This document shows, in pieces, positions 9,769-41,989 of a DNA stretch of 43,860 bases. Location of the stretch: the NCBI GenBank assembly GCA_031423695.1, contig JANPGB010000592.1, forward strand, positions 1 to 43,860, in the 5' to 3' direction. The notes beneath the pieces were generated by a model. That model was given only the letters and a program-made list of their open reading frames with translations. It did no database searches and had not been told where the DNA came from. Position 1 is the stretch's first letter, and the number at the start of each line of letters is the position of its first letter. The stretch comes from Verrucomicrobiota bacterium. GTDB lineage: Bacteria; Verrucomicrobiota; Verrucomicrobiia; Limisphaerales; CAIQOK01. A program made the position numbers and the translations under genes.

Positions 9769-9793
9769 CCGTGCCCATGGGAAACTAAAGCGA

Positions 9794-22781: not shown

Positions 22782-22888
22782 TTACATTCCATCATCCATG
22801 AACATGAGTGAACAATTCCATCGTCCGCGCTTCGTGGCGCACGTTCGTAGCGTTGCTGCGACGGCGAATATTCGGAAAGGTTTTTGAC

Positions 22889-23827
22889 ATGAAGGTTCTC
22901 GTTACCGGTGGCGCGGGTTTTATCGGCAGCCATATTGTTGAACATTTCCAGGGCCGGGCCGAGGTGCGCGTGCTGGACAATTTACGCTCCGGTTTTCGGC
23001 ATAATCTAAACGGCCTGCCGCACGAGTTCATCGCCGGCTCGATTTTGGATCGCGACCTCGTTCGTCAGGCGGTGGCCGGTGTGGATTGCATCTTCCATCT
23101 CGCGGCCATGATCAGCGTGCCGGAGTCCATGACGAATCCCGTCGGATGCAATGAAATCAACACCACCGGCACGTTGGTGCTGCTCGAGGAAGCGGCGCGC
23201 GCCAAGGTCAGGAAAATTGTCCTCAGCAGTTCGGCCGCAATTTACGGGGACAATCCAGTGACGCCCAAACTCGAGACGATGATGCCCGAGCCGAAGAGCC
23301 CGTACGCGATCACAAAGCTCGACGGCGAATTCTACTTCAAGATGTTTGCCGACGAGGGGCGCATCCAGACCGCCTGCCTGCGCTATTTCAACGTCTTCGG
23401 GCCGCGCCAGGATCCGCAGAGCCAGTATGCCGCCGCCGTGCCCATCTTTATTGATCGCGCGGTGAGGCATGAGCCGATCACCATTCACGGCGACGGCGAG
23501 CAGACCCGCGACTTCATCTACGTGAAAGACATCGTGGCGGCGAACGTGTTCTTTGCGACCCAGTCTCCGGCGATCGGCGTGTTCAATGTCGGTTACGGCC
23601 GGCGGACTTCGATCAAGGAACTCGCGGCCGCGATCTGTCGCCTGACGGGTTCGCGCTCCGAGATCCGGCACGCGCCCGAGCGCGCGGGTGATGTGAAACA
23701 TTCGCTCGCCGCCGTGGACAAATTGCGTGCCACGGGCTTCGTGCCGACGACCAATTTTGACGAGGGATTGCGCTCCACCGTGGAGTTCTTTCGCCACAAG
23801 GCAGATCAAAGCCAAATCAAGAGCTAA
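22889..23827 (+). CDS. NAD-dependent nucleotide-sugar 4-epimerase (extended SDR; GalE/WbpP-like)
   Basis: MKVLVTGGAGFIGSH, SSSAAIYG, catalytic SPYAITK (YxxxK), RYFNVFGPRQ. Start taken at ATG 22889 rather than the tracked 22808. Confidence 0.85.
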   Translation: MKVLVTGGAGFIGSHIVEHFQGRAEVRVLDNLRSGFRHNLNGLPHEFIAGSILDRDLVRQAVAGVDCIFHLAAMISVPESMTNPVGCNEINTTGTLVLLEEAARAKVRKIVLSSSAAIYGDNPVTPKLETMMPEPKSPYAITKLDGEFYFKMFADEGRIQTACLRYFNVFGPRQDPQSQYAAAVPIFIDRAVRHEPITIHGDGEQTRDFIYVKDIVAANVFFATQSPAIGVFNVGYGRRTSIKELAAAICRLTGSRSEIRHAPERAGDVKHSLAAVDKLRATGFVPTTNFDEGLRSTVEFFRHKADQSQIKS

Positions 23828-24000
23828 GCCCGCCAAAGGCAAACGCATTTTTGTTCTGGGTTGATGCTGGACGGCTAAGCTAGGCGGCGGAGGCCGATTA
23901 TGTGACGGTCCCGTGCCTGCTGGAAGCCGCCGACAAGAATCTGCTGAATGAAAAGCTCAAGGACCCGATTGAACTGATCAAGGAACGCCGCGAAGTGATT
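23828..24000 (+). pseudogene. Decayed, internally deleted second copy of the 3' end of the Kef-type antiporter gene
   Basis: By hand alignment, 23826-23875 matches 19192-19241 at 45/50. Then 23880-23933 matches 19551-19604 at 47/54, and 23934-24000 matches 19632-19698 at about 84 percent. Relative to the intact gene, about 305 nt and a further 27 nt are missing. The tracked ORF 23902..24147 begins by translating this remnant (LLEAADKNLLNEKLKDPIELIKERREVI versus LLEAAD...KNLLEEKRKEQIELLEERREVI). Confidence 0.75.
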
Positions 24001-24175
24001 GCGGGACGGGGTGACGTCGGTGGGCGAAGGTGCCGGTTCCCATTTCATCAGCCAATCGCTTCGCGATTTGCGACCGAAACCACTCCCTGCTTGGTGTCAG
24101 GCCTCCGCCATAACCACGAGTTTTGGTTGATTCAAGCTGCGGAATGAAGGCGCCAGCGCCGTTCAGAAGTTGAGT

Positions 24176-24191
24176 TGGAACGCGACTTGCG
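24176..24191 (+). promoter_or_regulatory. Sigma-54-type -24/-12 promoter upstream of the Ig-domain protein / NtrC-type activator genes
   Basis: TGGAACGCGACTTGCG versus the consensus TGGCACG-N4-TTGCW. GG is at 24177-24178 and GC at 24189-24190, which is the exact canonical spacing. It lies about 75 nt upstream of ATG 24266, in the correct orientation. Confidence 0.55.
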
Positions 24192-24265
24192 ATAGCTTGC
24201 AGTCGTCCACGCGGCGGCGTCCCGCTCGCAATGAGCCTTGCCTCCGCGAATGCGTATCCCAAATC

Positions 24266-25990
24266 ATGATTACTGTTTCCAGAACCTTGCGGTTGGGTTG
24301 GTTTTTCTGCCTTTGCTTCAAGTCAGCGCTGGCGCTGGGACAGGATTTTTCCGATTCCTTCGCCAGCCGCCAACTGCTCACCGGCACCTCTGAGTTCATC
24401 ACGGGCTCGAACACCATTGCCACGGTGGAGCCTTACGAGCCAAAGCACGCTGGAAAAATTGGCGGCCATTCGGTTTGGATTTCCTGGCTGGCGCCGGACA
24501 GCGGCCTGGTCACGCTCAACACCGTTGGCAGCACATTCGACACGTTGCTGGCGGTTTATGCGCTGGAACCTGGCAACGATCCGCCGCTCGAACGCCTGCA
24601 GGAGATCGCCGCAAACGACGACAACGGCACCGCAAAAACCTCGCTGGTACAATTTGGCGCGCAGCCCGGTCAGGAGTATGAAATCGCCATTGACGGTTTC
24701 AACGGTGACCTCGGAGACATCGCATTCCAACTTGATTTCCTTTCCTCCACCAACTTTCTGCCCACGGTGTTGCGCCGCCCCAACGACGAGGCGTTGCGGA
24801 TCGGTGACCCGCTGATCCTCACGATTAATCTGATCAAGACTAAAGCACTCGAATTGAACTGGTACCTCAACAGCAATGCCGTTTATGGAGCGGATGCGCC
24901 AACGCTGGTGATCCCCAGTCTCCAAGAGACGAATCTGGGATTCTACAACCTCCGCCTGAAGGTGGAAGACGTCGGTTTTTTCACCTCTGCCATCGAGATT
25001 CAGGTCAACTCCGAGGGTCTGATCAATGTGCTGGCCCGCAACAAACTCGCGGACTCGGTCACTTCCGGCCTCGCGCCGGGTGCTGGCGGAAGTCTCAGTG
25101 GACCTTTCAAAATGTTCAACCTGACCTCGGGGGTGATTCGCGGTTACAATGGCACGCAGATTTTCAACACCAGCCTGGCCACGATTGACCCCACCGAACC
25201 GGCGCACTGCGGTGTGAACGGCGGCGCGTCGTACTGGTTTTCATACCAGGCACCAACCAACGGCGCGATGCACGTGGACACTTTCGGCAGCACCTACGAC
25301 ACGGTGCTGGCAATTTATACCTACAACGGCACTCTTTACAGCTTCACCAACCTTGTCCCCGTCACGTGCGACAACAACGGTGGTCCCGACGGACTCACCA
25401 GCGTGGTGGACTACGCCACGGACAAGAACCGCAACTATTTCATCGTCGTGGACGGTGTCAACAGCGCCCGCGGCACCGCCTACCTGAATTACCGCCTGAC
25501 CACCGGTACCCCGGCGCAAGCGCCGGTGATCGCCACCCAACCGCAATCCCTCGTGGCCGCGCGCAGCACGGCAGTGGCGTTGACGGCCGCGGCAGGCGGC
25601 ACGGCACCGCTCGCCTATCAATGGTGGCGGAATAGTTCGCGCCTGAGTCAGAAGACCAACGCCAGCCTCACTTTCCTCGATCCGCAAAGCCAGGACGCCG
25701 GCAACTACACCGTCACCGTCACAAACCTGGCCGGCGCCGCCACCAGCTCCGTCGCTAAACTCAGCGTGCTTTCCGCGCCCTATTACTACCTCAACAACGC
25801 TTCCAACCTTTTTATTTCCGCCTTTCCAGTGACACGCGGCTACCAATACGCTGTGGATTGTGCGGCCCAACCAACAACCGGATCGTGGTGGCTCAAGACC
25901 AACGCCTTTGCCGACTTTGGCGGCATCGTCTGGGTTACGAATTCAACCCGGTATTCGAACTCCATGTATTTCCGCGTGCATCTGCCATGA
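24266..25990 (+). CDS. Secreted protein: two PPC-like beta-sandwich repeats, Ig I-set domain, C-terminal FYRxxxP module
   Basis: Signal peptide MITVSRTLRLGWFFCLCFKSALALGQ. There are two paralogous units (EPYEPKHAGKIGGHSVWISWLAPDSGLVTLNTVGSTFDTLLAVYAL and DPTEPAHCGVNGGASYWFSYQAPTNGAMHVDTFGSTYDTVLAIYTY). The Ig unit is PVIATQPQSLVA...YQWWRN...DAGNYTVTVTNLAGAATS. The protein ends MYFRVHLP. Confidence 0.75.
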   Translation: MITVSRTLRLGWFFCLCFKSALALGQDFSDSFASRQLLTGTSEFITGSNTIATVEPYEPKHAGKIGGHSVWISWLAPDSGLVTLNTVGSTFDTLLAVYALEPGNDPPLERLQEIAANDDNGTAKTSLVQFGAQPGQEYEIAIDGFNGDLGDIAFQLDFLSSTNFLPTVLRRPNDEALRIGDPLILTINLIKTKALELNWYLNSNAVYGADAPTLVIPSLQETNLGFYNLRLKVEDVGFFTSAIEIQVNSEGLINVLARNKLADSVTSGLAPGAGGSLSGPFKMFNLTSGVIRGYNGTQIFNTSLATIDPTEPAHCGVNGGASYWFSYQAPTNGAMHVDTFGSTYDTVLAIYTYNGTLYSFTNLVPVTCDNNGGPDGLTSVVDYATDKNRNYFIVVDGVNSARGTAYLNYRLTTGTPAQAPVIATQPQSLVAARSTAVALTAAAGGTAPLAYQWWRNSSRLSQKTNASLTFLDPQSQDAGNYTVTVTNLAGAATSSVAKLSVLSAPYYYLNNASNLFISAFPVTRGYQYAVDCAAQPTTGSWWLKTNAFADFGGIVWVTNSTRYSNSMYFRVHLP

Positions 25991-26036
25991 GCCATTTTCC
26001 GCGTAGCGCCACCGCCGCGCCGAGGAGTCAAATACG

Positions 26037-27425
26037 ATGAGCGATGCCTCGCCAGACCCCTTCTCCTGCCTGATCGTGGACGACGATGCGGGGTTCGTCT
26101 CCATGCTCGCCAAAGTCGTGACCCAGGAGGGCGGGCGATCCACCCATTGCGAAAACCTCCAGGCCGCGCGGGCGGAAATCCAGCGCAACACTTTCGATCT
26201 GGTTCTCCTCGACAACCGTCTGCCAGACGGCACCGGCTACGAATTTCATCCCCAGCTCCAACGCTGCTGCCCCAACACCATCGTCCTCATGATCACCGGC
26301 GTCCCCGAACTGGCGCAGGCCATTGAACTCACCCGTAACGGCCTCTTCGATTATCTGACCAAGCCGCTGAACGTCGCCGATTTCACCGCGTCTTTGCGTC
26401 GTGCCAAACTGCGCCTCAGCCATGCCGATTCGGTGGATGCGGCTGATGAACTCATCGGCAGCTCCCCTGCCCTGCACGAAGCCATCAACACGTTGCGCCA
26501 GGTCGCCCAACATCCAACCACGCCGGTGCTTTTGCTCGGCGAAACCGGCACCGGCAAAGACCTCGCCGCGCGGATGCTGCATCGCCTCAGCTATTCGGCC
26601 AGCGCAACGCCGCCGCCGTACATCCCGCTCAACTGCTCCGCCGTGCCCGCTGAAATGTTCGAAGCCGAATTGTTCGGCAGTGAAAAAGGCGCTTACACCG
26701 GCGCGGACAAACGCCGCGTCGGCCTCATTGAAGGCGCGGAAGGCGGCACGTTGTTCCTGGACGAAATCACCGAAACGCCCCTGCCGCAACAGGCCAAACT
26801 GCTGCGTTTTCTGGAGTCCCGCGAGTATCGCCCGCTCGGCAGCAACACCATGCGGGAGTTCACTGGGCGCGTCGTGGCCGCAACGAACCGCTCCCTTCAG
26901 ACCGAGGTCCGGCAGGGACGCTTCCGTGAAGACCTGATGTTCCGCCTCAGCGTCGTCGTCGTACGCCTGCCCGCACTGCGCGACCATCCCGCCGACCTTG
27001 AACCCCTGACCGAAAAGCTGCTCGCCCAGCTCAGCGAAAAATACCGGCGCAAAAAGCTGTTCCTCAAACCGCCGGATCTGGCGGCGCTGCGCGAATATCG
27101 CTTCCCCGGCAACGTGCGTGAACTGCGCAATCTGCTTGAACGCTCCCTGCTGCGCACACCGGGGGATTCCCAATCGCTCGCCTTTGACCTCACCTGGCTG
27201 GGCAGCAGCATAGCGACCGAAGCCGCCGAGGCGCTGCCACCGCTGCCGACGGAGCGCCAACTCAGCGCCATCGAGCTCCAGGAGTATCGCCTCATCCAGC
27301 AGACCTTGCGCACGGAAGGCGGCGCGATCCGCCGCGCTGCGGCCAAGCTCGGCATCACGCATCAGGCGCTGTTGCGGCGTCTGGAAAAATGGCCGGAGCT
27401 GCGCCAGGTGCTTCCGCATTCGTGA
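26037..27425 (+). CDS. NtrC-family sigma-54-dependent response regulator (REC-AAA+-HTH)
   Basis: REC domain (LIVDDD...DLVLLDNRLPDGTG...MITG), Walker A GETGTGKD, GAYTGA loop (26688-26705), Walker B GGTLFLDEI, FREDLMFRL, and a C-terminal Fis-type HTH (AAAKLGITHQALLRRL). Confidence 0.9.
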   Translation: MSDASPDPFSCLIVDDDAGFVSMLAKVVTQEGGRSTHCENLQAARAEIQRNTFDLVLLDNRLPDGTGYEFHPQLQRCCPNTIVLMITGVPELAQAIELTRNGLFDYLTKPLNVADFTASLRRAKLRLSHADSVDAADELIGSSPALHEAINTLRQVAQHPTTPVLLLGETGTGKDLAARMLHRLSYSASATPPPYIPLNCSAVPAEMFEAELFGSEKGAYTGADKRRVGLIEGAEGGTLFLDEITETPLPQQAKLLRFLESREYRPLGSNTMREFTGRVVAATNRSLQTEVRQGRFREDLMFRLSVVVVRLPALRDHPADLEPLTEKLLAQLSEKYRRKKLFLKPPDLAALREYRFPGNVRELRNLLERSLLRTPGDSQSLAFDLTWLGSSIATEAAEALPPLPTERQLSAIELQEYRLIQQTLRTEGGAIRRAAAKLGITHQALLRRLEKWPELRQVLPHS

Positions 27426-27478
27426 TTGAAAAGATTTTTTGTGCGCGCCGATTTCCCTCCACTTTCCAGAACGGCAGT

Positions 27479-27516
27479 GGACCGCTTTTGGTCCGCTCGT
27501 GGTCTGAGAACGGACC
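27479..27516. promoter_or_regulatory. Phased array of four GGWCY pentamers (candidate activator-binding UAS)
   Basis: GGACC 27479, GGTCC 27490, GGTCT 27501 and GGACC 27512, with starts exactly 11 bp apart. TGGTCCG (27489-27495) and CGGACCA (27511-27517) form a 7-bp inverted repeat. The array lies about 200 bp upstream of the -24 element at 27711. Its function is inferred only. Confidence 0.35.
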
Positions 27517-27576
27517 AGGAATGGCCGTTGCGTCACCATCGAAGCCCAGCAGCTAAAAATATCCGGCCGCCCGTGA

Positions 27577-27656
27577 CTGGTAGGGCGCATCACTCCGTGC
27601 GCGCCGATTCCGACAAGACTGGCCCCGGCGCGCACGGAGTGACGCGCCCTACCAGC
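27577..27656. repeat. 80-bp palindromic (REP/MITE-like) element: 30-bp stem with one mismatch, 19-nt loop
   Basis: CTGGTAGGGCGCATCACTCCGTGCGCGCCG (27577-27606) is the reverse complement of 27626-27655, except for A27589 opposite C27643. The loop is ATTCCGACAAGACTGGCCC. Confidence 0.85.
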
Positions 27657-27709
27657 GCCGCTGCTTTCGAAGGCGATTTATCCCGACCTCCGATCTCCAA
27701 CTGACGCTA

Positions 27710-27725
27710 CGGCACTTCGACTGCT
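27710..27725 (+). promoter_or_regulatory. Sigma-54-type -24/-12 promoter upstream of the FecR/TPR/barrel gene
   Basis: CGGCACTTCGACTGCT has GG at 27711-27712 and GC at 27723-27724, the canonical spacing. It sits only about 20-35 nt before the candidate starts (ATG 27743 or 27758), hence the lower confidence. Confidence 0.45.
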
Positions 27726-27742
27726 CAGTAGATCCTAACCAA

Positions 27743-30700
27743 ATGTCCCGAACCAAAATGTTATTGAAGGCCCGCGCCATTTTTTTCGTGGTGGTGGCCT
27801 TCGCGGTTTGCCTGACTGCCAACCCAAGCCAGGCCCAGGCGCCCTCCGCCCCCGCTGCAAACGACTTTGCCAGCCGGCTTGTCGGATTCGCCGGCAAAGT
27901 CGAAGTCACGCTCCCAGCCACCAACGACTGGCGGGCCGCGATCACCAACCAGCTGCTGCATCCCGGCGACCGTCTTCGCACCGTCGCCGACAGCCGCGCC
28001 ACGCTGCTTCTGTCCGACCGCAGCGTCATTCGCGTCAACCAGTCCACGCTGATTGAAATCCAGCCACCGACTCAACCTGCGCGCCGCCGTTTCAGCCTCA
28101 AGCACGGCGCGCTCTACTTTCTGAATCGTGAGAAACCCGCGGCCGTCGAGTTTGAAACCCCGCTCGCCACCGGCGCGATTCGTGGCACGGAATTTGTGCT
28201 CACCGTCGCCGAGTCCGACAACACGACGATGCTCGCGCTGCTCGACGGCGCGGTTCAACTCCGCACCCCCGCTGAGCAACTCAATCTCGCCAGCGGCCAG
28301 CAGGCGCTGGTGCAAGCCGGCCAGCCCGCCAAGCTCACTGCGGTGCTGCCCGCCGCAAATCTCATTCAGTGGTGCTTTTATTATCCCGGCATTCTCAACC
28401 CCGCCGACCTATTGTTCACTGATGCCGAAAAAACTGAGCTGACAAAATCTCTCGCCGCCTACGCGGGCGGTGATTTGCTCGCAGCCCTTGCCGAAGCGCC
28501 CGCAGACATCCTGGCGGGGTCCGCTGCAAGGCAACTTTACTGCGCGGCCCTCAAGCTCGGTGTGGGTCAGGTGGAATCTGCTGAAGTGCTGCTCGCGCCG
28601 TTGACGAATGCACCGCTCGCCACCGCACTCCGCGAACTCATCGCGGCGGTCAAGTTTCAGGAGATCACCACGCCCGGCACGCCCGCGACCAGCAGCGAGT
28701 GGCTCGCCCGTTCCTACTATCTCCAATCGCGTTCACAACTTCCCGCCGCGCTCGCTGCGGCGAAGCGTGCGACCGAACTCACTCCAAGTTTCGGCTTCGC
28801 CTGGGCGCGCGTGGCGGAACTGGAATTTGGTTTCGATGACCGCCGCGGCGCCCGCGCCGCATTGCAGCGCGCGCTTCAGTTGTCGCCCCATCATGCCCAG
28901 GCCGTCGCGCTCGAAGGCTTCCTCGCGCTCGACGAAAATCATCCGCGCGCCGCGCTGGATAAGTTTGATCGCGCGCTTGCGCTCGACGGCGCATTGCCCA
29001 ACGCCTGGCTCGGTCGGGCGCTGGCGCATGAACAACTCGGCGACACTGGAGCCGGCCAGCGTGAACTCCAGACTGCCGCCGCGCTTGAACCGAATCGCGG
29101 ATTGTTTCGCAGCTACCTCGGCAAGGCGTGGAGCCAGTCGGGACTGGACCAGCTGGCGGAAAAGGATTTCGCCCGCGCGCAGGCGCTCGACCCCGCCGAT
29201 CCGACCGCGTGGCTTTATTCCGCATTGCATCGCCACCAGACGCATCAGATCAACGACGCCGTGCGCGACCTGGAACACTCGCGCGAGTTGAACGACAACC
29301 GCAGCGTGTTCCGCTCGCGCCTGCAACTGGACCGCGACCGCGCCGCCCGCAGCGCGGATCTCGCGGGGATTTACGATGCGGCGGGCATAGTCGAAGTCAG
29401 CGAGCGCGCCGCCAGCCGCGCCGTGCAGGATTCCTATTCTGATTTTGCCGGGCACCTGTTTCTCGCCCAAAGCCTGGAAGGCCGCGAAGATCCGCACCGG
29501 TTTGATCTGCGTTTTGAAACGGCGCGGGAAAGCGAGCTGCTCCTCGCGAACCTGCTCGCGCCGCCGGGCGGCGGCAATCTCTCGCAACTGCTCCCGCAGC
29601 AGGACCACCTCCAATACTTCGACAGGCGCCCGATTGGATTCAGCTCGTTGACTGAATACCGCAGCGGCGGGGACTGGAGCCAATCCGCCACGGTCTTCGG
29701 CCATGCCAAAGGCTTCAGCTACGCGCTCGACACGCAATACGTTTCCGAAAACGGCCAGGGTCCAAACCGCGATCTGGAGGCCCGCCAGTTTTCCTTCCAA
29801 GCCAAACAGCAGATAACGCCCAACGACAGCGCCTACTTTCAGGCGAGTGATTTTCGCGGCGAGAGCGGCGATGTGGCACAGCATTACGATCCGGCGAAGG
29901 TCATCGCCGGCCTGCGGGCCAGGGAGAAGCAGAGTCCGAATTTGTTCCTTGGCTGGCACCACGAATGGTCGCCAGGCAGCCACACTTTGCTGTTGTTCGC
30001 GCGGCTGACCGACCGGCTCGCTTTGACCAATCCACAACCGAGCGTGCTCTTCATGCGGCAGAACGGGACCGCCCTCACCAGCGTGCAACCCGACCCATTC
30101 TTCACGTTGCAACAGGAGAGCAAATTCACGCTTTATTCCGCCGAGGCGCAGCAGATCTGGGAATCCTCCCGGCACGCGCTCATTATCGGCGGCCGCTATC
30201 AACAGGGTTCGGTGGACACGCATTCGACGCTGACCCGCATTTTTGGCGCTACGGAAGATCAAACCGTTTCGCCGTCCCTGGAACGTCTTAATGGCTACGG
30301 CTACTACCAATGGCGGCCCGACGCCGCCTTCCACCTGACGGCCGGCCTGAGCTACGACGAGATTGCGTTCCCGCGAAATGTGGATCTCCCGCCGATTCGC
30401 GGCGAGGAGGAACGCCGCTCGCTGTTTGGCCCGAAGGTGGGCTTCACCTTGCGGCCATGGCGCGATGGCTGGCTGCGCGGCTCGTGGACCCGATCGCTCG
30501 GCGGACTTTATTTCGACAACAGCATCCGGCTGGAGCCCGCGCAGGTGGCCGGCTCCACCAGCGCATTTCGCAGTCTGCTTCCCGAATCCACCGAAGGCCT
30601 CGTGCCCGGTTCGCAGATCGAGACTTGGACGCTGGGTTTCGACCAGTCGTTGCCAAGTGCAACGTATTTTGGCCTCGGCGCAGAGCTTCTCAAATCCGAC

Positions 30701-31240
30701 GGCGCGCGCGACGTGGGCGCGTTCACGAACTCCATTGCCTTCATTCCCGTGCCCGACGGGCCGGCAGCGACACGGCAGACGCTCAACTTTGAGGAGCTGA
30801 GTTATTCAGCCTACGTGAACCAGCTCATCGGCCGATGCTGGTCCGCCGGCGCGCGCTATCGCGTCAGTCAGGCGGAACTCACCGGACGTTTCCCGGAACT
30901 GGCGGGCGTCGCCGGAGTCAACGCTTTGAATCAGGACGAACGCTCGGTGCTGCATCAGGCGCAGATCTTCCTGCTGTTCAACCATCCGAGCGGCGTCTTC
31001 GGCGGCTGGTCCTCGTCGTGGTACCGACAGAGCAATGTGGGCTACACGCCGGATCGTCCCGGTGACAACTTCTGGCAGCATGACATTTTCGCCGGGTACC
31101 GCTTTCCGCACCGGCACGCGGAAATCCGGCTCGGCGTGCTGAACCTGACCGACCAAGACTGCCAGCTGAACGAGTTGAACCTGCATTCCGAACTCGCACG
31201 GCACCGCACCTTCACCGCGTCGTTGCGGCTGAACTTTTAA
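27743..31240 (+). CDS. Secreted fusion protein: FecR-like domain + TPR repeats + C-terminal outer-membrane beta-barrel (TonB-receptor-like C-terminus)
   Basis: 1165 aa with signal peptide AIFFVVVAFAVCLTANPSQAQA. The FecR-like region is GKVEVTLPATNDWRAAI...GDRLRTVADSRATLLLSDRSVIRVNQSTLIEI...TPLATGAIRGTEF. TPR-like helical repeats span roughly residues 300-560. The C-terminal half has alternating beta-strand patterns and ends LGVLNLTDQDCQLN...FTASLRLNF, an OMP-style terminal Phe. Confidence 0.85.
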   Translation: MSRTKMLLKARAIFFVVVAFAVCLTANPSQAQAPSAPAANDFASRLVGFAGKVEVTLPATNDWRAAITNQLLHPGDRLRTVADSRATLLLSDRSVIRVNQSTLIEIQPPTQPARRRFSLKHGALYFLNREKPAAVEFETPLATGAIRGTEFVLTVAESDNTTMLALLDGAVQLRTPAEQLNLASGQQALVQAGQPAKLTAVLPAANLIQWCFYYPGILNPADLLFTDAEKTELTKSLAAYAGGDLLAALAEAPADILAGSAARQLYCAALKLGVGQVESAEVLLAPLTNAPLATALRELIAAVKFQEITTPGTPATSSEWLARSYYLQSRSQLPAALAAAKRATELTPSFGFAWARVAELEFGFDDRRGARAALQRALQLSPHHAQAVALEGFLALDENHPRAALDKFDRALALDGALPNAWLGRALAHEQLGDTGAGQRELQTAAALEPNRGLFRSYLGKAWSQSGLDQLAEKDFARAQALDPADPTAWLYSALHRHQTHQINDAVRDLEHSRELNDNRSVFRSRLQLDRDRAARSADLAGIYDAAGIVEVSERAASRAVQDSYSDFAGHLFLAQSLEGREDPHRFDLRFETARESELLLANLLAPPGGGNLSQLLPQQDHLQYFDRRPIGFSSLTEYRSGGDWSQSATVFGHAKGFSYALDTQYVSENGQGPNRDLEARQFSFQAKQQITPNDSAYFQASDFRGESGDVAQHYDPAKVIAGLRAREKQSPNLFLGWHHEWSPGSHTLLLFARLTDRLALTNPQPSVLFMRQNGTALTSVQPDPFFTLQQESKFTLYSAEAQQIWESSRHALIIGGRYQQGSVDTHSTLTRIFGATEDQTVSPSLERLNGYGYYQWRPDAAFHLTAGLSYDEIAFPRNVDLPPIRGEEERRSLFGPKVGFTLRPWRDGWLRGSWTRSLGGLYFDNSIRLEPAQVAGSTSAFRSLLPESTEGLVPGSQIETWTLGFDQSLPSATYFGLGAELLKSDGARDVGAFTNSIAFIPVPDGPAATRQTLNFEELSYSAYVNQLIGRCWSAGARYRVSQAELTGRFPELAGVAGVNALNQDERSVLHQAQIFLLFNHPSGVFGGWSSSWYRQSNVGYTPDRPGDNFWQHDIFAGYRFPHRHAEIRLGVLNLTDQDCQLNELNLHSELARHRTFTASLRLNF

Positions 31241-31292
31241 ACCCATGCGCCTGCTCGCCACACAACCGGGCCTCGGCCTATAATCTCCCCGC

Positions 31293-33998
31293 GTGCCGAG
31301 CCGACTCGAATCAAAACATCCGCGCAGCCTGACCTTGGCAGGCCTCATCGTTGTGCTGGCGCTCGTGAGCGGGTGGCTGCTCCTGCCGGAGTCGCGACCG
31401 GGCGAGGTCCTCGCACGCGCGAGTTACGACTGGTCACAATCCTTCCTCCCACCCGTCCCGCTGAGCAACTCTCCGGTGGTCCTGGTTTATCTCGACCTTG
31501 ATTCACACCTCCGCGAAAAACAAAATCCCGCCGAACCCTGGAGTCGCGCCCTGCACGCGCGACTAGTTCGCCGGCTCACCGAGGCGGGGGCCAGGGCCAT
31601 CGGGTTCGACATCATCTTCGCCGGGCCGAGCGCGGACCTGGCGGCGGATCGGGAGTTGGCCGAGGCCATTCACGCCAACGGCCGCGTCGTTCTCGCCGCC
31701 GAAATCAACCGCTCCAGCCGCGGCACCGCGCAAGTGGAAGGCATCAAGTCGCTGCAGCTCTCCATGCCCGCAAAAACCTTCCTCGACGCCGCCGCCGCGT
31801 GGGGCGTGGCCAACGCGCGCGTGGACGACGACTTCATTGTGCGGCGGCATTTCCACGGTTTTCCTGAACAGCACCAGCCCAGTCTCACGCTGGCAACGGC
31901 GCAATTGATCGGCTTGCCGCTCGCGTTGGCCGACACCGATCTGCTGCCGGCAAAATGGCTTCGTTACTACGGCCGGGCGCTGGCGTTGCCACACGTCAGT
32001 TACAGCAGCGCCCTCCATCGCGACGAGGTGAAAGATGAATTCTTCCGCGACAAGATAGTCTTGGTCGGCGCGCGACCGATGGCCGGGACATTTGGGGAGC
32101 GCAAAGATGAATTTCGCAATCCGCTGTCGGCGTGGGGCGACCAGGAACTCTTCATGCCCGCCGTGGAAGTTCACGCCACGCAACTGCTCAACCTGATGCA
32201 CGGAGACTCGCTGCGTCGCCTGCCGCCACTGGCGGAGTTGTTGATGCTCGCGCTGACGGCGGGGCTGTTTGGCTGGCTGCTGTATCGTTTCCGGCCCTTC
32301 CCGGCGGCGGGAATGGCGTTGGCGGGCGAAGTCGTGGTTTTCGCCGTCGTTGCATTTGCGCTGCCGGCGCAACGGGTTTGGTTTCCGTGGCTGATCGTCA
32401 GCGCGGTGCAAATCCCCATCGCGCTTGCGGCCTCGGTGCTTTACCAATCGCTCGAATGGTATCGGCAGAAACGGCGGCTCGAGGCGCAACGCCGCGCCGA
32501 CGAGGTGAAGATTCGCGAGCAAGCCGCGCTCATCGAAAAGGCGCAGGACGCCATTCTGGTTCAGGATTTGCAGGGCCAAATCAACTATGCCAATCCAAGC
32601 GCGGAAAAGCTTTTCGGCTGGAGCGCCAGCGAGCTTCAGCAGGAGGGAGCGGCGCGGCGGCTGTTCGCTCCGAGTCACAAACAGTTTGCCGAGGCGATCC
32701 AAGCCACCCACGCCACCGGCGAATGGCAGGGTGAATTGCGGCCGTCCACGCGCGCCGGCCGCACGCTCATCGTGGAAAGCCGCGGCACGCTCATCAAAGA
32801 CGAATGCGGCCGGGCGATTTCCGTGCTGCTCATCAACACCGATGTCACCGAGCGGAGACAGCTCGAAGCCGAATCGCTCCGGGCGCAGCGCCTGGAAAGC
32901 ATCGGCGCGCTGGCCGGCGGGATGGCGCATGATTTGAACAATGCGCTGTCGCCGATTTTGATGGGCCTGCAACTGTTGCAGAAGGAGCGGCAGGACGAAG
33001 AGACGCGGCGCATGCTGGCGGTAATGGAGTCCAACACGCACCGCGGCGCGGATATGGTCAAGCAGGTGTTGCTCTTTGCGCGCGGACGCGACGGCGAGAA
33101 AGAACCGCTCGCCCTCGGCAGCCTGGTCCACGAAATGGAGCGCATCGTGCGGCAGACGTTTCCGAAAGCGATCAACGTCGCCGCACTTGTGCCCGCCGAC
33201 CTCTGGCCCGTGCTCGGCAACGCGACGCAACTGCATCAGGTATTGCTCAACCTTTGCGTCAACGCCCGCGATGCGATGCCGCGCGGCGGTGAACTCACCC
33301 TGGCCGCCGATAACGTCGAACTGACACCCGCCGAGGCCACGGGGATTCCGCAGGGCGCGCCCGGACGCTATGTCATGCTGCTCGTGTCGGACACGGGGAA
33401 CGGGATTGCGCCGGAAGTTATGCCGCGCATCTTCGAGCCGTTCTTCACGACGAAACCGGTCGGTGAGGGAACGGGCCTCGGCCTTTCGACCAGCGCGCGG
33501 ATTGTCAGCCAGCACGGCGGTTTCATGAATGTGAAAAGCGAGCCGGGCCGCGGCGCGACCTTCGAGCTTTACCTGCCATGCGCCACGATTGCGCCGACGC
33601 CGGAAACTCAACGTGCGAGTTTTGCCGAAGCACCGCGTGGCGGCGGCGAGATGATACTGCTGGTGGACGACGAACAGGCGCTCCGAGAAATGATTTCCCG
33701 CACGCTCACGGACCAGGGTTATCAAGTCACCACGGCAACTCACGGCGCGGAAGCGCTGCTGCACTTGAACCACTCAGGGGACTCCGTCCAACTGGTGCTG
33801 CTGGATCAGGAAATGCCCGTGATGGACGGCCGCGCAACCTTGACCGCCCTCCGCACCCGCTGGCCAAAGCTCCCCGTCATTCTGATGAGTGGTAAAATCG
33901 GGCCGGAAGCATTGCCGCACACCACCACGCTGGGAAAACCGTTTCAACTCCATCAACTGCTGCAAGCGGTCGCCGCCCAGTGCCACGTCGGCAAATAG
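31293..33998 (+). CDS. CHASE2-domain hybrid sensor histidine kinase (TM-CHASE2-3TM-PAS-HisKA-HATPase-REC)
   Basis: GTG start with an N-terminal TM helix (LTLAGLIVVLALVSGWLLL). The periplasmic CHASE2-like region is VVLVYLDLDS...IGFDIIFAGPS...IVLVGA, followed by three TM helices. PAS is AQDAILVQDLQGQINYANPSAEKLFGW, and the NtrB-type H-box is GMAHDLNNALSPI. It also has LLNLCVNARDAM and GEGTGLGLS, and a C-terminal REC (ILLVDDE...LVLLDQEMPVMDG). Confidence 0.9.
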   Translation: MPSRLESKHPRSLTLAGLIVVLALVSGWLLLPESRPGEVLARASYDWSQSFLPPVPLSNSPVVLVYLDLDSHLREKQNPAEPWSRALHARLVRRLTEAGARAIGFDIIFAGPSADLAADRELAEAIHANGRVVLAAEINRSSRGTAQVEGIKSLQLSMPAKTFLDAAAAWGVANARVDDDFIVRRHFHGFPEQHQPSLTLATAQLIGLPLALADTDLLPAKWLRYYGRALALPHVSYSSALHRDEVKDEFFRDKIVLVGARPMAGTFGERKDEFRNPLSAWGDQELFMPAVEVHATQLLNLMHGDSLRRLPPLAELLMLALTAGLFGWLLYRFRPFPAAGMALAGEVVVFAVVAFALPAQRVWFPWLIVSAVQIPIALAASVLYQSLEWYRQKRRLEAQRRADEVKIREQAALIEKAQDAILVQDLQGQINYANPSAEKLFGWSASELQQEGAARRLFAPSHKQFAEAIQATHATGEWQGELRPSTRAGRTLIVESRGTLIKDECGRAISVLLINTDVTERRQLEAESLRAQRLESIGALAGGMAHDLNNALSPILMGLQLLQKERQDEETRRMLAVMESNTHRGADMVKQVLLFARGRDGEKEPLALGSLVHEMERIVRQTFPKAINVAALVPADLWPVLGNATQLHQVLLNLCVNARDAMPRGGELTLAADNVELTPAEATGIPQGAPGRYVMLLVSDTGNGIAPEVMPRIFEPFFTTKPVGEGTGLGLSTSARIVSQHGGFMNVKSEPGRGATFELYLPCATIAPTPETQRASFAEAPRGGGEMILLVDDEQALREMISRTLTDQGYQVTTATHGAEALLHLNHSGDSVQLVLLDQEMPVMDGRATLTALRTRWPKLPVILMSGKIGPEALPHTTTLGKPFQLHQLLQAVAAQCHVGK

Positions 33999-34007
33999 TT
34001 TCCGCCG

Positions 34008-35243
34008 CTATTGGGCATCCTTGTAGGCATGATCGGCGGCGATGTCTTCCCCGGCCCAGATTCGTTTCTGCGTCCACGGTTCCCCAGGCGCGGTCCAGAA
34101 CGGATCATTCGCCGGCAGACCCAGGTGAACCAATCCCGTCAGACAAAGGTAGAGGCTGCCGGTGGCGATGTAGGGTTCGCGGATGGACTGCTGGCGGCCC
34201 ACAGCGCCCACTTGCAACCAACCTTGGCCGTCAAACATTCCCGGCGCTTCGGCCATGCGCCGAATCACTGCCGTCAGCGCGCACCGGACGGCAGCGGGTT
34301 TGAGGTCGGCGGACAGGTCGTGGTGCAGCGCCATGTCCGCCAGGTGTTGCAGCGCGCCGAAGCGATAGGCGCTGGAACGGCCGATCACCGGAAAAGTTCC
34401 TTCCGGCGAAATCAACCGCTCCTGCACTTGCCCATAGCGTCGCGCGCGCGCGACAATTTTCGGACGCAGTTCGCCGAGCGGATCCTTTTTTTCGGCGCAG
34501 ACGCGCACGACTTCGAGCAGCATCGGCTGGATCACGTAGCTGTTGTAGTAATCCCAATGCAGTTCCGGGCCATCGCCGTAAGTGCCGTCGCCGAGATACC
34601 ACTGCATGTGTCGGTTGATGGCATATTGCACTGGCTTCAGCTCGCATTCGCCGGTGAACTGCCAGAGCGCGGCCTCGACGGTAGCGGAAAACAGGAGCCA
34701 GTTGTTTTCACCCGGCTTGAGCACACGCGAGGCCTTCAGCGCCGCGACGACGTTGCTGCGCTGCGGGGCATCCAGTCTTCCCCAGAGCTGGGTCGGGGCG
34801 CGCAACAGTCCCAGCGCCAGAAACGCGGTGTCCACGAGCGGCTGGCCGCCTTGGGTGAAATTCATGAAATCCGGCGACTTCGGATCGGTGGCGTGGATCA
34901 GCGATTTGACGGCGAGGTCAATGAACCGGGCGCGCAGCCGGCCCTCGGCGCTTTCATCCGGGCCAAGTTCCAGCCACGGCGCGATGCCGGCGAGCGTTCG
35001 ACCGAAGGCTTCAAGCTGACTGTAGTTCGTGCGGGCGCGTTCCCAATCATGGTGGGGAAACCGCTCGCGGAGTTTGCCCTCGGCCAGCGCGGTGAGCACC
35101 GGCTCTGCCACGCGGGTGAGCGTCCTCACGGAATAGGCGCGATCTTCGGCGCCGGTGGAGATTTCCGCGCCGGCGGCGCTCCGGACAACCAGCGCAGACA
35201 GGGCGAGTGCGAATGTGGATGCGCGAAAAATTTTGCAAATCAT
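34008..35243 (-). CDS. Secreted DUF2264-like protein (probable alpha/alpha-barrel glycan-processing enzyme)
   Basis: Signal peptide from ATG 35243 (MICKIFRASTFALALSALVVRSAAGAE). Motifs I associate with DUF2264 are NNWLLFSATVEAAL and YLGDGTYGDGPELHWDYYNSYVIQPML. The family call is from memory and unverified. Confidence 0.6.
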   Translation of the reverse strand: MICKIFRASTFALALSALVVRSAAGAEISTGAEDRAYSVRTLTRVAEPVLTALAEGKLRERFPHHDWERARTNYSQLEAFGRTLAGIAPWLELGPDESAEGRLRARFIDLAVKSLIHATDPKSPDFMNFTQGGQPLVDTAFLALGLLRAPTQLWGRLDAPQRSNVVAALKASRVLKPGENNWLLFSATVEAALWQFTGECELKPVQYAINRHMQWYLGDGTYGDGPELHWDYYNSYVIQPMLLEVVRVCAEKKDPLGELRPKIVARARRYGQVQERLISPEGTFPVIGRSSAYRFGALQHLADMALHHDLSADLKPAAVRCALTAVIRRMAEAPGMFDGQGWLQVGAVGRQQSIREPYIATGSLYLCLTGLVHLGLPANDPFWTAPGEPWTQKRIWAGEDIAADHAYKDAQ

Positions 35244-35334
35244 GACAAGTGAAGATTTCAAGAGGCCCGCCGGGCTGCCAGCTTAAAATCGCGCAGGCCG
35301 GGCGAAAGCTTGGGGACTCAAGCCGGACGTAACC

Positions 35335-37236: not shown

Positions 37237-38373
37237 ATGAAAGCCAGCTTCAGCAATTTATTCACGCTCGCCGTCGCGGTGTCGCTCGTCGCGAGCGCCG
37301 GGGCGAAGGCGGAACCACGGTTCAGAACCCAAAAACCGCTCGTGCAAGTCGCCATCCTGATCGACACCAGCAACAGCATGGACGGACTCATCGGCCAGGC
37401 GAAAAGCCAGCTGTGGAAGATCGTCAACGAGTTCAACCACGCGCGGCAGGATGGCCAGATGCCCGAGGTGCAGGTCGCGCTGTTTGAATACGGTAACAAC
37501 AGCTTGTCCGCGCAGGCAGGCTGGATTCGCAAGGTGTCGGACTTCACGACCGACCTCGACTTGATCTCGGAAAAACTCTTCGCGTTGAGAACCAACGGCG
37601 GCGAGGAATACTGCGGCTGGGTCATCAAGGACGCGCTCGACCGGCTGGAGTGGAGTCCTTCGCCGCGGGCCTACAAGGCCATCTTCATCGCGGGCAACGA
37701 GCCGTTCACACAGGGCCCGGTGGATTACACCGACCCGTGCAAGGCCGCCCGGGCGCGCGGCATCATTGTAAACACGATCCATTGTGGCGACGAGCGCACG
37801 GGAGTGGACACGATGTGGCGCGACGGCGCGCGGCTGGCGGACGGGAAATTTCTGGTCATCAACCAGGATCGGGCCGTGGCCTATGTCGAAGCGCCGCAGG
37901 ACAAGGAGATCGCAAAATTGAGCAGCGACTTGAACAGCACTTATCTCGCCTATGGTCGCGATGGTGCGGAGAGTGTTGTGCGGCAGGAAATGCAGGACCG
38001 GAACGCCGCCACCGTGGCATCGGCGGGCGCGGTGGTGGCGCGTGCGGTGGCCAAGTCGTCGGCGCATTACAGCAACAGCAAATGGGACTTGGTGGACGCC
38101 GCCAAGGACAAGGATTTCAAACTGGATGCCTTGAAGGAGGCCGAACTGCCCGCGGCGATGCAGGCGTTGCCGCCCGCCGCGCGCAAGGAGTTCGTTGAGG
38201 AGAAAGCGCAGGAGCGCGGCGAGTTGCAGACCAGGATCAACACGCTCAATGCCGCGCGCGAAAAATACGTCGCCGCGAAGATGAAGGAAATCGTCACCAC
38301 GAACACGCTCGACAGTGTCGTCATCACCACCGTGCGCGAACAGGCGCGCACGCGGCAATTCACGTTCGATTGA
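37237..38373 (+). CDS. Secreted von Willebrand factor type A (vWA) domain protein
   Basis: Signal peptide (LFTLAVAVSLVASAGAKA), MIDAS DxSxS (AILIDTSNSMDG), ...RTNGGEEY..., IFIAGNEP and VNTIHCG. The C-terminal third is a charged helical region. Confidence 0.8.
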   Translation: MKASFSNLFTLAVAVSLVASAGAKAEPRFRTQKPLVQVAILIDTSNSMDGLIGQAKSQLWKIVNEFNHARQDGQMPEVQVALFEYGNNSLSAQAGWIRKVSDFTTDLDLISEKLFALRTNGGEEYCGWVIKDALDRLEWSPSPRAYKAIFIAGNEPFTQGPVDYTDPCKAARARGIIVNTIHCGDERTGVDTMWRDGARLADGKFLVINQDRAVAYVEAPQDKEIAKLSSDLNSTYLAYGRDGAESVVRQEMQDRNAATVASAGAVVARAVAKSSAHYSNSKWDLVDAAKDKDFKLDALKEAELPAAMQALPPAARKEFVEEKAQERGELQTRINTLNAAREKYVAAKMKEIVTTNTLDSVVITTVREQARTRQFTFD

Positions 38374-38396
38374 GCCATCCCCCCGCCCTGCCCTCT

Positions 38397-38433
38397 CCGC
38401 ACCGCCGGCCACCGACGGTGCGGAATTTTTTTT
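38397..38433 (+). terminator. Rho-independent terminator after the vWA gene
   Basis: CCGCACCG (38397-38404) pairs perfectly with CGGTGCGG (38416-38423) across an 11-nt loop, followed by AA and eight T (38426-38433). Confidence 0.7.
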
Positions 38434-38630
38434 GGCGCAGCCTCCCACGCACTCAGCCACATCCGGAGAAACGGTGAGCCAAAAAAAATCTGGGCAAAAC
38501 CCGCCTTCACTTCCATCAGCGGTTCGCTATCGGACCGGGTTGGTCCGGAACAAACACGTCCAGCGTCGCCTTCATAAAGATGCAGCGGGCGAAACCGAGA
38601 AATTTTGGATTTTTCCAGTGCCTGCTAAGT

Positions 38631-38646
38631 TGGCATGTGAACTGCA
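38631..38646 (+). promoter_or_regulatory. Sigma-54-type -24/-12 promoter upstream of the Ig adhesin / DUF3570 / ApbE genes
   Basis: TGGCATGTGAACTGCA versus the consensus TGGCACG-N4-TTGCW. GG is at 38632-38633 and GC at 38644-38645. It lies about 55 nt upstream of ATG 38699 and about 200 nt downstream of the vWA terminator. Confidence 0.6.
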
Positions 38647-38698
38647 ATCTCCTGACCTACGAACCGAATTCACAATTGCGCTCTCAGCTTATAGTTGC

Positions 38699-41977: not shown

Positions 41978-41989
41978 TTTGGATGACGC

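Follow-up and report, generated by a model that had tools for sequence, protein, structure and literature searches.

Four co-directional genes, located at 24176–33998 (+ strand) of a 43,860-nt stretch of DNA from a Verrucomicrobiota bacterium (Limisphaerales; CAIQOK01; assembly GCA_031423695.1, contig JANPGB010000592.1, forward strand, 1–43,860; hereafter the window), most likely form a system that couples a signal at the outer membrane to gene expression. We consider it probable that the module carries out trans-envelope signalling of the type known from NsrA of Sinorhizobium meliloti, with a two-component, sigma-54-dependent output in place of cAMP. The core pair is already known from NsrA–CyaK, and the version with a kinase and sigma-54 is what is new. 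This reading draws on the domain anatomy, the predicted fold, the homology to NsrA and CyaK, the linkage of the genes, and the conservation of promoter and palindrome sequences, all of which are documented here. The four genes are as follows:

24266–25990, + strand: Ig/PPC gene, encoding a secreted 574-aa protein with five beta-sandwich domains
26037–27425, + strand: activator gene, encoding an NtrC-type response regulator (bacterial enhancer-binding protein)
27743–31240, + strand: nsrA-like gene, encoding a 1165-aa NsrA homologue
31293–33998, + strand: kinase gene, encoding an inner-membrane CHASE2 hybrid histidine kinase

The initial annotation had described these as a unit of four genes with particular domains. 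Profile searches (Pfam, NCBIfam) and inspection of the sequences recovered all of the domains, and the unit was borne out by neighbourhood conservation: among 33 Verrucomicrobiota loci with adequate flanks, the complete set of four is present in 18, arranged in at least four different orders. The genes that flank the module in the window, encoding an epimerase (22808–23827) and a DUF2264 protein, are not kept beside it in the annotated relatives.

The outer-membrane protein and its homology to NsrA

The 1165-aa protein starts with a signal peptide (aa 1–33), followed by a FecR-like beta-sandwich (aa 44–200; Pfam FecR at aa 76–172, E 5e-14) and a TPR superhelix (aa 204–605; TPRs also matched by Pfam). 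It ends (aa 632–1165) in an outer-membrane beta-barrel of the kind seen in TonB-dependent transporters but with no plug, the final residue being Phe. Position 27758 is a possible alternative start, as the identical database entry is 1160 aa long. The C-terminal barrel, a guess in the initial annotation, is now confidently predicted: the AlphaFold2 model (pLDDT 87.7, pTM 0.85) has strands spanning aa 632–1164, about 22–24 in number according to DSSP, and Foldseek matched the barrel to TonB-dependent transporters (OprC, E 1.7e-14; FecA among the matches), with a target-normalised TM-score of about 0.55 over about 600 aligned columns. PF00593 is recorded in many relatives of the protein. The model thus supports a predicted architecture of an outer-membrane barrel with a periplasmic FecR/TPR part. 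Of the findings that the initial annotation had named as refuting it, two were looked for, a neighbourhood not conserved in relatives and a C-terminal half not predicted as a barrel, and neither was observed. The 22-strand barrel fold of a TonB-dependent transporter is present without the N-terminal plug of that family: Pfam gave no match to the plug domain (PF07715), and the TPR region and the barrel are separated in the model by no more than about 50 residues, some of them helical.

The protein aligned to NsrA of S. meliloti by BLASTP over aa 21–510 (E 7e-22, 26% identity). Profile–profile comparison with hhalign matched the N-terminal halves with 99.4% probability (E 5.6e-22), and the barrel half to those of three alphaproteobacterial NsrA proteins with 95% probability (E 3.8e-8), in an alignment of 304 columns that reaches the C-terminal Phe. 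The CHASE2 domain of the neighbouring kinase is 32% identical to that of CyaK (E 2e-19), and the nsrA-like gene lies upstream of and adjoins the CHASE2 gene, as in the S. meliloti, Methylocystis and Rhizobium loci. The sequence features of the NsrA family, namely the periplasmic homology, the barrel, the domain order and the CHASE2 neighbour, are all found here, and by these comparisons the 1165-aa protein is a full-length homologue of NsrA. The initial annotation had stated that no characterised system has this composition; for the core pair this does not hold, since NsrA–CyaK likewise consists of a FecR–TPR–barrel protein followed by a CHASE2 receptor. Genetically, the CHASE2 adenylate cyclases CyaK, CyaD1 and CyaD2 depend on NsrA for their signal (PMC7529298, PMC13001267), a requirement for CHASE2 signal transduction that is known only for S. 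meliloti (PMC7529298). No biochemical demonstration of contact between NsrA and CHASE2 was found in the literature consulted, that on S. meliloti included.

A 22-strand-type barrel without a plug could point to a role in transport. The large protein might then be mainly a channel for transport or secretion. It would export the Ig/PPC protein or a polymer, or display it, or else import a substrate, with the kinase and activator only regulating its expression. The TPR-porin exporters PgaA and BcsC, in which TPRs are joined to a C-terminal barrel, provide a precedent for such a layout. The barrel also has a transporter fold with no plug; moreover, the Ig/PPC protein is co-conserved in 29 of the 33 loci, and both genes lie behind sigma-54-type promoters (see below), as would be expected for a regulated pair of cargo and channel. 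We nevertheless regard this explanation as unlikely. The N-terminal domain is FecR-like, a type of domain that serves in protein–protein signalling, and the neighbour that stays the same is a CHASE2 receptor, whose output module can be exchanged between kinase and cyclase. In alphaproteobacterial loci, nsrA is accompanied by a cyclase gene only, with no cargo gene. Neither the window nor the annotated relatives show a conserved polysaccharide synthase or glycosyltransferase gene next to the module, nor do they contain the adjacent polysaccharide synthase and modification genes that mark PgaA/BcsC-type exporters. Furthermore, the full-length homologue NsrA has a known role in signal perception (PMC7529298).

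The FecR domain recognized by Pfam, together with the structural similarity of the barrel to FecA and other TonB-dependent transporters, would also suit a rearranged Fec-type cell-surface signalling system, consisting of a TonB-dependent transducer, a FecR anti-sigma factor and an ECF sigma factor. This is highly improbable and is already contradicted by the anatomy. The FecR-like domain follows the signal peptide and is fused to the barrel, rather than residing in an anti-sigma factor of the inner membrane whose N-terminal domain is cytoplasmic, and neither a plug nor an N-terminal signalling domain was detected in the 1165-aa protein (Pfam, AlphaFold2 model). An ECF sigma gene is absent from positions 22808–35261 of the window and from the module in three of four annotated relatives (L002, L003 and L005); the fourth (the locus of P0120) has one some 2 kb upstream of its kinase gene. 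The output genes here encode instead a kinase and a sigma-54 activator.

The CHASE2 kinase and the NtrC-type activator

The kinase contains CHASE2 (E 7.5e-38), PAS, HisKA, HATPase_c and REC domains (Pfam). The first transmembrane segment (aa 11–34) precedes a periplasmic domain of about aa 35–311, and the remaining three segments lie within aa 312–385. CHASE2 is a widespread sensor domain for which we know of no ligand, and it had no sequence match in the PDB. The activator contains REC, Sigma54_activat (E 3.4e-57), AAA lid and HTH_8 domains, and therefore has the REC domain, AAA+ sigma-54 domain and Fis-type HTH of an NtrC-type regulator. Its sigma-54 contact motif is GAYTGA at aa 218 (a GAFTGA variant), its Walker A motif is GETGTGK, and an acidic pocket (D16/D17), D59 and K108 can be read from the sequence of the REC domain. 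The rpoN gene was not found in the window or in any collected locus; the intact activator and the conserved promoters hint, indirectly, that the genome may have it.

The initial annotation had classed the H-box of the kinase (AHDLNN) as the NtrB type. This argument is weak and was not supported: the H-box reads MAHDLNNAL, and the best NCBIfam matches of the kinase were to CckA and VirA-like kinases, with AtoS and ZraS ranking below them and NtrB far lower. AtoS and ZraS are partners of NtrC-type regulators.

The pairing of the two proteins is supported by the co-occurrence of their genes. The activator, whose orthologues are 49–86% identical, is encoded next to the module in 18 of the 22 loci of the kinase type, compared with 0 of 6 loci of the cyclase type, and in one common gene order it directly follows the kinase gene (3′). 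Phosphotransfer between them is putative, and a direct transfer from kinase to activator is an assumption, because the kinase is a hybrid and the module lacks an Hpt gene, both in the window and in three annotated relatives. The same observations are compatible with a kinase and activator that are not cognate, in which case the kinase would feed an Hpt protein encoded elsewhere, or only its own receiver, and another kinase would control the activator. The closest curated families point the same way: one is that of the VirA-like kinases, and the other, CckA, works through the phosphotransferase ChpT. The window also encodes, at 13938–16484, another hybrid kinase, this one with an Hpt domain. 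Given the distribution of the activator gene described above, we find such a non-cognate arrangement quite doubtful. Attached receiver domains can also be regulatory rather than relay steps, VirA being one example. Rec-controlled kinases such as LvrB are reported as another (PMC13269768).

In 28 of the 33 loci, a CHASE2 gene is located no more than 10 kb from the NsrA-like gene, and in orthologous loci it is the kinase gene that adjoins the NsrA-like gene. In more distant paralogues, a CHASE2 cyclase is encoded directly downstream of the NsrA-like gene and the activator is absent. The NsrA-like/CHASE2 pair is therefore the constant part, and the output goes with the cytoplasmic module. A genome scan gave at least 583 confirmed matches to the NsrA-like family in Verrucomicrobiota, with several paralogues in some genomes, and a search with the barrel gave 1188 clusters at 50% identity.

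Predicted promoters and palindromes upstream of the module genes

Inspection of the intergenic regions revealed the following elements:

24176–24191, + strand: sigma-54-type −24/−12 element TGGAACGCGACTTGCG, 74 nt 5′ of the Ig/PPC ATG, with one mismatch to TGGCAC-N5-TTGC
27489–27517, no strand assigned: cluster of GGTCCG/CGGACC half-sites, including the palindrome GGTCTGAGAACGGACC at 27501–27516
27710–27725, + strand: sigma-54-type −24/−12 element CGGCACTTCGACTGCT, just 5′ of the nsrA-like gene, of the form GGCAC-N6-TGC
31255–31284, + strand: sigma-70-like promoter match TCGCCA-18-TATAAT, directly 5′ of the kinase gene, agreeing at 10 of 12 positions

Taken by themselves, the −24/−12 matches in the window are no more numerous than expected by chance, GGCAC-N6-TGC occurring twice (once at 27710–27725), and both elements are off consensus, one having A for C at −24 and the other scoring 5/8. 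The evidence for them comes from comparison with relatives. The element at 24176 is part of a block, GAGTTGGAACGCG(A/T)CTTGCGATAGCTTG, that L008, the closest relative, retains amid diverged flanks. Five close orthologous loci have GGCAC-N6-TGCTC at the position of the 27710 element, the rest of the intergenic region being unconserved, and near-variants occur in two further loci (GGCAT in L009, N7 spacing in L010). Across the family, elements scoring at least 6/8 were present in 14 of 38 upstream regions of Ig genes and in 18 of 75 of NsrA-like genes, versus 2% of random segments in each case, an enrichment of about 12- to 18-fold; upstream of CHASE2 genes there were none (0/48). The suggestion in the initial annotation that sigma-54-type promoters precede the first and third genes is thus upheld by conservation in orthologues and by family-wide enrichment, and we assign predicted −24/−12 promoters to these target genes at 24176 and 27710. 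The sigma-70-like match, a weak candidate, may be a constitutive promoter for the kinase gene.

Palindromes of the class G[GT]TC[CT]G-N3-5-CG[GA]A[AC]C were matched 56 times across 1.32 Mb of loci. Of these matches, 39 fall no more than 350 nt upstream of a module gene, and for 33 of them that gene is an Ig or NsrA-like one. Counted by gene, 17 of 38 Ig genes and 15 of 75 NsrA-like genes have such a palindrome within 350 nt upstream, against a background of 0.015 per 350 nt. The cluster at 27489–27517 is the candidate upstream activating sequence for the enhancer-binding protein; no clear palindrome was seen upstream of the Ig/PPC gene in the window.

The secreted protein, a working model and comparison with known systems

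The 574-aa Ig/PPC protein is secreted and all-beta, with the domain order PPC-like, Ig-like, PPC-like, Ig_3 (Pfam, aa 420–487) and a C-terminal beta domain. Its start at 24266 is backed by a 100% identical 574-aa database entry. The AlphaFold2 model (pLDDT 86.2) retrieved only generic Ig arrays with Foldseek, and Pfam PPC was matched weakly in 15 of 56 family members. Of the 33 loci, 29 encode a relative of the N-terminal PPC–Ig–PPC unit no more than 10 kb from the NsrA-like gene. The protein is likely a sigma-54-dependent output of the system, and it is possibly also a co-sensor. A bolder and rather unlikely reading is that it forms an integral third sensor subunit, sitting in or passing through the plug-less barrel and providing the part that is exposed at the surface and binds the ligand. 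LptE, housed within LptD, and the surface lipoproteins that cover TonB-dependent transporters would be parallels. If so, Verrucomicrobiota would own a family of self-amplifying three-protein outer-membrane receptors, diversified into several paralogues per genome, each acting through CHASE2 on sigma-54 or cyclic nucleotides.

For the physical contacts, the direction of signalling, the ligand, the route of phosphotransfer and the DNA sites of the activator, we propose the following working model of NsrA-type signalling. The 1165-aa protein would display its barrel loops at the cell surface, with the FecR-like domain at its N-terminus and the TPR arm both held in the periplasm. Some cue at the surface or in the envelope would alter the engagement of this FecR/TPR part with the periplasmic CHASE2 domain of the kinase, which would autophosphorylate and then phosphorylate the activator, directly or under the control of its own C-terminal receiver. 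The activator would bind palindromes of the GGTCCG-N4-CGGACC type and drive the sigma-54 promoters of the Ig/PPC and nsrA-like genes, resulting in positive feedback on the sensor and production of the secreted Ig/PPC protein.

The NsrA/CHASE2 sensing pair is modular, the same outer-membrane partner being combined with a kinase/sigma-54 or a cyclase output. The readout of the kinase variant would be simple, consisting of sigma-54 promoters and a recognisable palindrome before its own genes, and the signalling step should therefore be easier to address by reporter assays and co-folding. The module would also offer a first starting point for assigning a function to one of the many large envelope proteins of Verrucomicrobiota that lack annotation.

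Among known systems, FecA–FecR–FecI follows a similar logic, from an outer-membrane barrel through a FecR-type periplasmic domain and an inner-membrane component to the regulon of an alternative sigma factor, and the barrel resembles FecA in fold (Foldseek). It differs in having an ECF sigma factor, an anti-sigma factor, a plug and an N-terminal signalling domain, whereas here the FecR-like domain is fused to the barrel protein and a two-component system leads to sigma-54.

Genomes of other bacteria, too, repeatedly pair FecR-type domains with CHASE2 receptors, such gene pairs having been noted in Burkholderia (PMC5192318) and Campylobacterota (PMC9239204). The Burkholderia ‘BiofilmReg’ operon, a PA4035/PA4036-like pair, encodes a LysM–FecR protein, a CHASE2 histidine kinase and an OmpR-type regulator, and so, as here, places a secreted FecR-domain protein beside a CHASE2–PAS histidine kinase and a response regulator (PMC5192318). 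Its FecR protein is small, with a peptidoglycan-binding LysM domain and neither a TPR region nor an outer-membrane barrel, and its regulator is of the CreB/OmpR type, not a sigma-54 activator. The Campylobacterota system also links a FecR-domain outer-membrane protein and TPR repeats to a CHASE2 receptor; it differs in its cAMP output, in distributing the TPR and FecR/outer-membrane functions over separate proteins, and in lacking a sigma-54 activator and an Ig/PPC gene (PMC9239204).

NsrA–CyaK shares with the module an outer-membrane protein homologous over both halves, with the same FecR–TPR–barrel order and similar length (1165 aa here, 1200 aa in NsrA), and a next gene encoding a CHASE2 receptor with a homologous periplasmic domain; its cyclase form is found in the more distant Verrucomicrobiota paralogues. 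The host here belongs to a free-living Verrucomicrobiota lineage and the identity to NsrA is only about 26%; given this lifestyle, the signal in S. meliloti (plant or ribosomal uL2 protein) need not apply. The output of NsrA–CyaK (with CyaD1 and CyaD2) is a class III cyclase acting through cAMP–Clr, whereas the module has PAS–HisKA–HATPase–REC, a dedicated NtrC-type activator and predicted sigma-54 promoters, includes a fourth conserved gene for the secreted Ig/PPC protein, and appears to regulate itself.

Architecture of the four-gene module

Domain matches confirmed that the four co-directional genes at 24176-33998 encode the products described in the initial annotation:

Genes of the module and their flanks
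24266-25990, + strand: Ig/PPC gene, 574 aa, with an N-terminal signal-peptide-like helix and an Ig_3 domain
26037-27425, + strand: activator gene, with REC, Sigma54_activat (E 3.4e-57), AAA lid and HTH_8 domains
27743-31240, + strand: NsrA-like gene, 1165 aa, with a FecR domain (aa 76-172) and TPRs
31293-33998, + strand: kinase gene, a CHASE2-PAS-HisKA-HATPase-REC hybrid kinase
Flanks: epimerase upstream and a DUF2264 gene downstream on the other strand, unrelated to the module

The start of the Ig/PPC gene at 24266 is supported by an identical 574-aa database entry. The AlphaFold2 model of its product contains five beta-sandwich domains (pLDDT 86.2), and weak Pfam PPC matches in 15 of 56 relatives make the 'Ig/PPC-repeat' label a fair one. 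Foldseek returned generic Ig arrays only, and thus no functional lead. The C-terminal beta domain (~70 aa, window 25780-25990) ends in YFRVHLP, and the same domain occurs twice, after Ig_3, in a 1220-aa protein (38315-41977), with the endings FYRLAFP and FYRLATP; Ig_3 followed by 'xYRxxxP' appears to be a recurring unit. The activator has the full domain set of an NtrC-type enhancer-binding protein, reads GAYTGA at the sigma-54 contact motif and keeps Walker A intact. In the kinase, a single TM segment precedes the periplasmic CHASE2 domain (~aa 35-311) and three follow. A PDB sequence search with the CHASE2 and FecR-like parts as queries gave no significant match.

The NsrA-like protein was modelled with AlphaFold2 from an alignment of 79 sequences (pLDDT 87.7, pTM 0.85) as a signal helix, a beta-sandwich (aa 44-200), ~20 TPR-like helices (aa 204-605) and a large barrel (aa 632-1164), in agreement with the FecR-TPR-barrel fusion proposed earlier. 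The top Foldseek matches in the PDB are exclusively TonB-dependent transporters (OprC, E 1.7e-14, then FhuE, FoxA and FecA), aligned over ~600 columns with a target-normalised TM-score of ~0.55, and PF00593 is recorded in many relatives. No plug domain was found by domain search or in the model. A barrel-only search (clusters at 50% identity, E up to 0.001) yielded 1188 clusters; nearly all of the best 150 are ~1150-1260 aa long with the barrel at the C-terminus, which points to a dedicated family whose architecture is fixed. That such a plug-less barrel serves primarily in transport or secretion, possibly involving the Ig/PPC protein, is in our view unlikely, and the anatomy of the module conflicts with a Fec-type ECF system. 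We favour a role in signalling, as set out below.

Within the barrel half, conservation peaks at aa 918-957 (window 30494-30613; LGGLYFDNSIRLEPAQVAG...RSLLPES..GLVPG, with many invariant residues). This segment of ~40 residues is mostly non-strand and breaks the run of modelled barrel strands, with low pLDDT around aa 947-950; the model would allow a loop that narrows the lumen or touches a partner.

Conservation of the gene neighbourhood

Relatives at 51-71% identity have all four genes on annotated contigs, some in the order of the window and others arranged as kinase, activator, Ig, NsrA-like. Among species-representative genomes, a scan confirmed at least 583 relatives, almost all from Verrucomicrobiota, and 80 loci were kept. 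Its relatives also place the window itself in Verrucomicrobiota. Linkage was counted in 33 distinct loci with adequate flanks, and bore out the predicted conservation of the neighbourhood:

Genes linked to the NsrA-like gene
All four genes: 18/33 loci
Relative of the Ig/PPC N-terminal unit: 29/33 loci
CHASE2 gene: 28/33 loci
Activator, among kinase-type loci: 18/22
Activator, among loci with a CHASE2 protein without a kinase core: 0/6

In the two of these last six loci that were checked, the CHASE2 protein is a 672-673-aa adenylate/guanylate cyclase, encoded directly downstream of the NsrA-like gene as in Sinorhizobium meliloti. Retention of the same set through several rearrangements is strong evidence for a functional link between the four genes.

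Some genomes carry at least two paralogous modules. Two modules lie on different contigs in JAYWBR01, JANYDP01, JBDHQG01 and CAZBIC01, and one locus (L047, 565-16982) holds three NsrA-like genes, including a tandem pair, close to a CHASE2 gene. The family is being enlarged by paralogous duplication. The titles of several MAG records with a typical Verrucomicrobiota locus name Bifidobacterium, Bifidobacteriaceae, Akkermansia muciniphila, Haliangiales or Acidobacteriaceae (loci L017, L033, L036, L042, L043, L044, L046, L063, L064, L070, L074, L078 and L084), and these records are probably mislabelled or contaminated bins.

The window also encodes the 1220-aa multi-Ig_3 protein followed by a DUF3570 protein (38315-43453), and in two compared loci (L002, 1-6212; L005, 644-6316) a DUF3570 gene lies by large Ig/PKD-domain proteins and adjoins the signalling module, in clusters that also hold genes for DUF4266 and thioredoxin, and in L002 for ApbE. 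These genes may belong to an envelope or redox cluster linked to the module, or may form a regulon that it targets. Two overlapping ORFs with N-terminal methylation (prepilin-type) motifs are found at 8869-10648, and similar N_methyl genes adjoin the module in L003 and L004.

Regulatory sequences and a proposed relay

Window-wide counts of sigma-54 consensus matches were uninformative (TGGCAC-N5-TTGC with at most one mismatch, 7 matches against 5.45 expected; GGCAC-N6-TGC, 2 against 3.66), and positional conservation across loci was used instead. Before the NsrA-like gene, GGCAC-N6-TGCTC is conserved in position between the window and four close orthologues of the locus; near-variants occur in L009 (GGCAT) and L010 (N7 spacing), while the remaining intergenic sequence is unconserved. 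Before the Ig gene, GAGTTGGAACGCG(A/T)CTTGCGATAGCTTG is common to the window and L008. Elements were then called family-wide:

-24/-12 elements (invariant GG and GC, with matches at 6 or more of the 8 remaining positions)
Upstream of Ig genes: 14/38
Upstream of NsrA-like genes: 18/75
Upstream of activator genes: 2/28
Upstream of CHASE2 genes: 0/48
Random segments: 33/1640

The sigma-54-type promoters predicted earlier before the Ig/PPC and NsrA-like genes are thus conserved as sequence elements. The RpoN box had no match in the window DNA and collected loci, and no direct statement on rpoN in Verrucomicrobiota was found in the literature searched.

In 1.32 Mb of loci, 56 copies were counted of a 16-bp palindrome class (GTTCCG-N4-CGGAAC or GGTCCG-N4-CGGACC). 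It lies within 350 nt upstream of 17/38 Ig genes, typically 160-200 nt before the start, and of 15/75 NsrA-like genes; the window copy is at 27501-27516. These palindromes are candidate binding sites of the activator. The strict form replaced a loose dyad pattern with mismatches, which was too permissive (640 matches). The window's two upstream regions share no 10-mer. A 30-nt inverted repeat between the activator and NsrA-like genes (27577-27655, 97% complementary, 19-nt loop) was rejected as an activator site, being absent at that position in L007 and L008, where other hairpin repeats occur (GAAAGTAGCCCACGGCG...); it resembles an intergenic insert of the REP type. The duplicated GTGCGCGCCGATT (27441 and 27597), considered alongside it, was also set aside.

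Directly before the kinase gene is a sigma-70-like promoter match (TCGCCA-18-TATAAT, 31255-31284). Its end and the annotated GTG start of the kinase are 9 nt apart, so that either the mRNA is near-leaderless or the true start codon lies further downstream. Together, the sigma-54 elements, palindromes and sigma-70-like match suggest that the kinase may be expressed constitutively, with the Ig/PPC and NsrA-like genes inducible.

The best-supported mechanism is an NsrA-type trans-envelope relay with phosphorylation, sigma-54 output and positive feedback. The FecR/TPR part of the NsrA-like protein would act on the CHASE2 domain of the kinase, as suggested by their constant genomic pairing, the interchangeable cytoplasmic output, and the links of FecR-type proteins to CHASE2 receptors in Burkholderia (PMC5192318) and Campylobacterota (PMC9239204). 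The kinase would in turn phosphorylate the activator, a step to which the co-occurrence of the two genes points. With a receiver domain in the kinase itself and no Hpt gene in the module, phosphotransfer to the activator may be direct or may be controlled by that receiver domain; that kinase and activator are non-cognate seems quite improbable. In the proposed relay, the activator would then bind the palindromes and drive sigma-54 output with positive feedback. Among the window proteins scanned, the only Hpt domain belongs to another hybrid histidine kinase (13938-16484, - strand; three receiver-domain matches), ~8 kb upstream of the module.

Relation to NsrA and CHASE2 receptors

NsrA of S. 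meliloti is predicted to form a beta-barrel in the outer membrane (barrel aa 600-1200), and perception of plant and ribosomal uL2 signals through the CHASE2 adenylate cyclases CyaK, CyaD1 and CyaD2 depends on it (PMC7529298, PMC13001267). The signal perceived in S. meliloti is a basic unfolded protein, which by analogy offers a lead, and no more, on the ligand here.

A tblastn search of plasmid records matched the window protein to the annotated nsrA on pSymB, where nsrA (1200 aa; FecR aa 66-160 and TPRs) is directly followed by cyaK (CHASE2 and cyclase). The window protein aligns with NsrA over aa 21-510 by BLASTP (E 7e-22), its N-terminal half matches NsrA by profile with 99.4% probability, and the barrel halves match those of three alphaproteobacterial NsrA proteins with 95% probability (E 3.8e-8, 304 columns, to the terminal Phe). 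The CHASE2 domains of the window kinase and CyaK share 32% identity (E 2e-19). The window protein is therefore a member of the NsrA family, with all the defining features that could be tested. Plasmids of Methylocystis and Rhizobium likewise carry a FecR-protein/cyclase pair, and these comparisons together place the NsrA-CHASE2 pair at the core of the finding.

In S. meliloti (L001, 7196-7741, - strand) and Rhizobium sp. BG4 (L088, 5205-5744, - strand), a divergent gene just upstream of nsrA-cyaK is annotated as DUF5706 / 'Pycsar system effector family', which puts a cyclic-nucleotide-related membrane protein beside the cyclase system.

The initial annotation knew of no characterised precedent for the system; for the core pair, this must be revised in favour of S. 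meliloti NsrA-CyaK, in which the outer-membrane gene also directly precedes the CHASE2 receptor gene. No description of CHASE2 with sigma-54, or of the four-gene module in Verrucomicrobiota, was found in the literature searched. Compared to NsrA-CyaK, what is new here, in Verrucomicrobiota, is the kinase/sigma-54 output, the conserved fourth Ig/PPC component and the apparent autoregulation.
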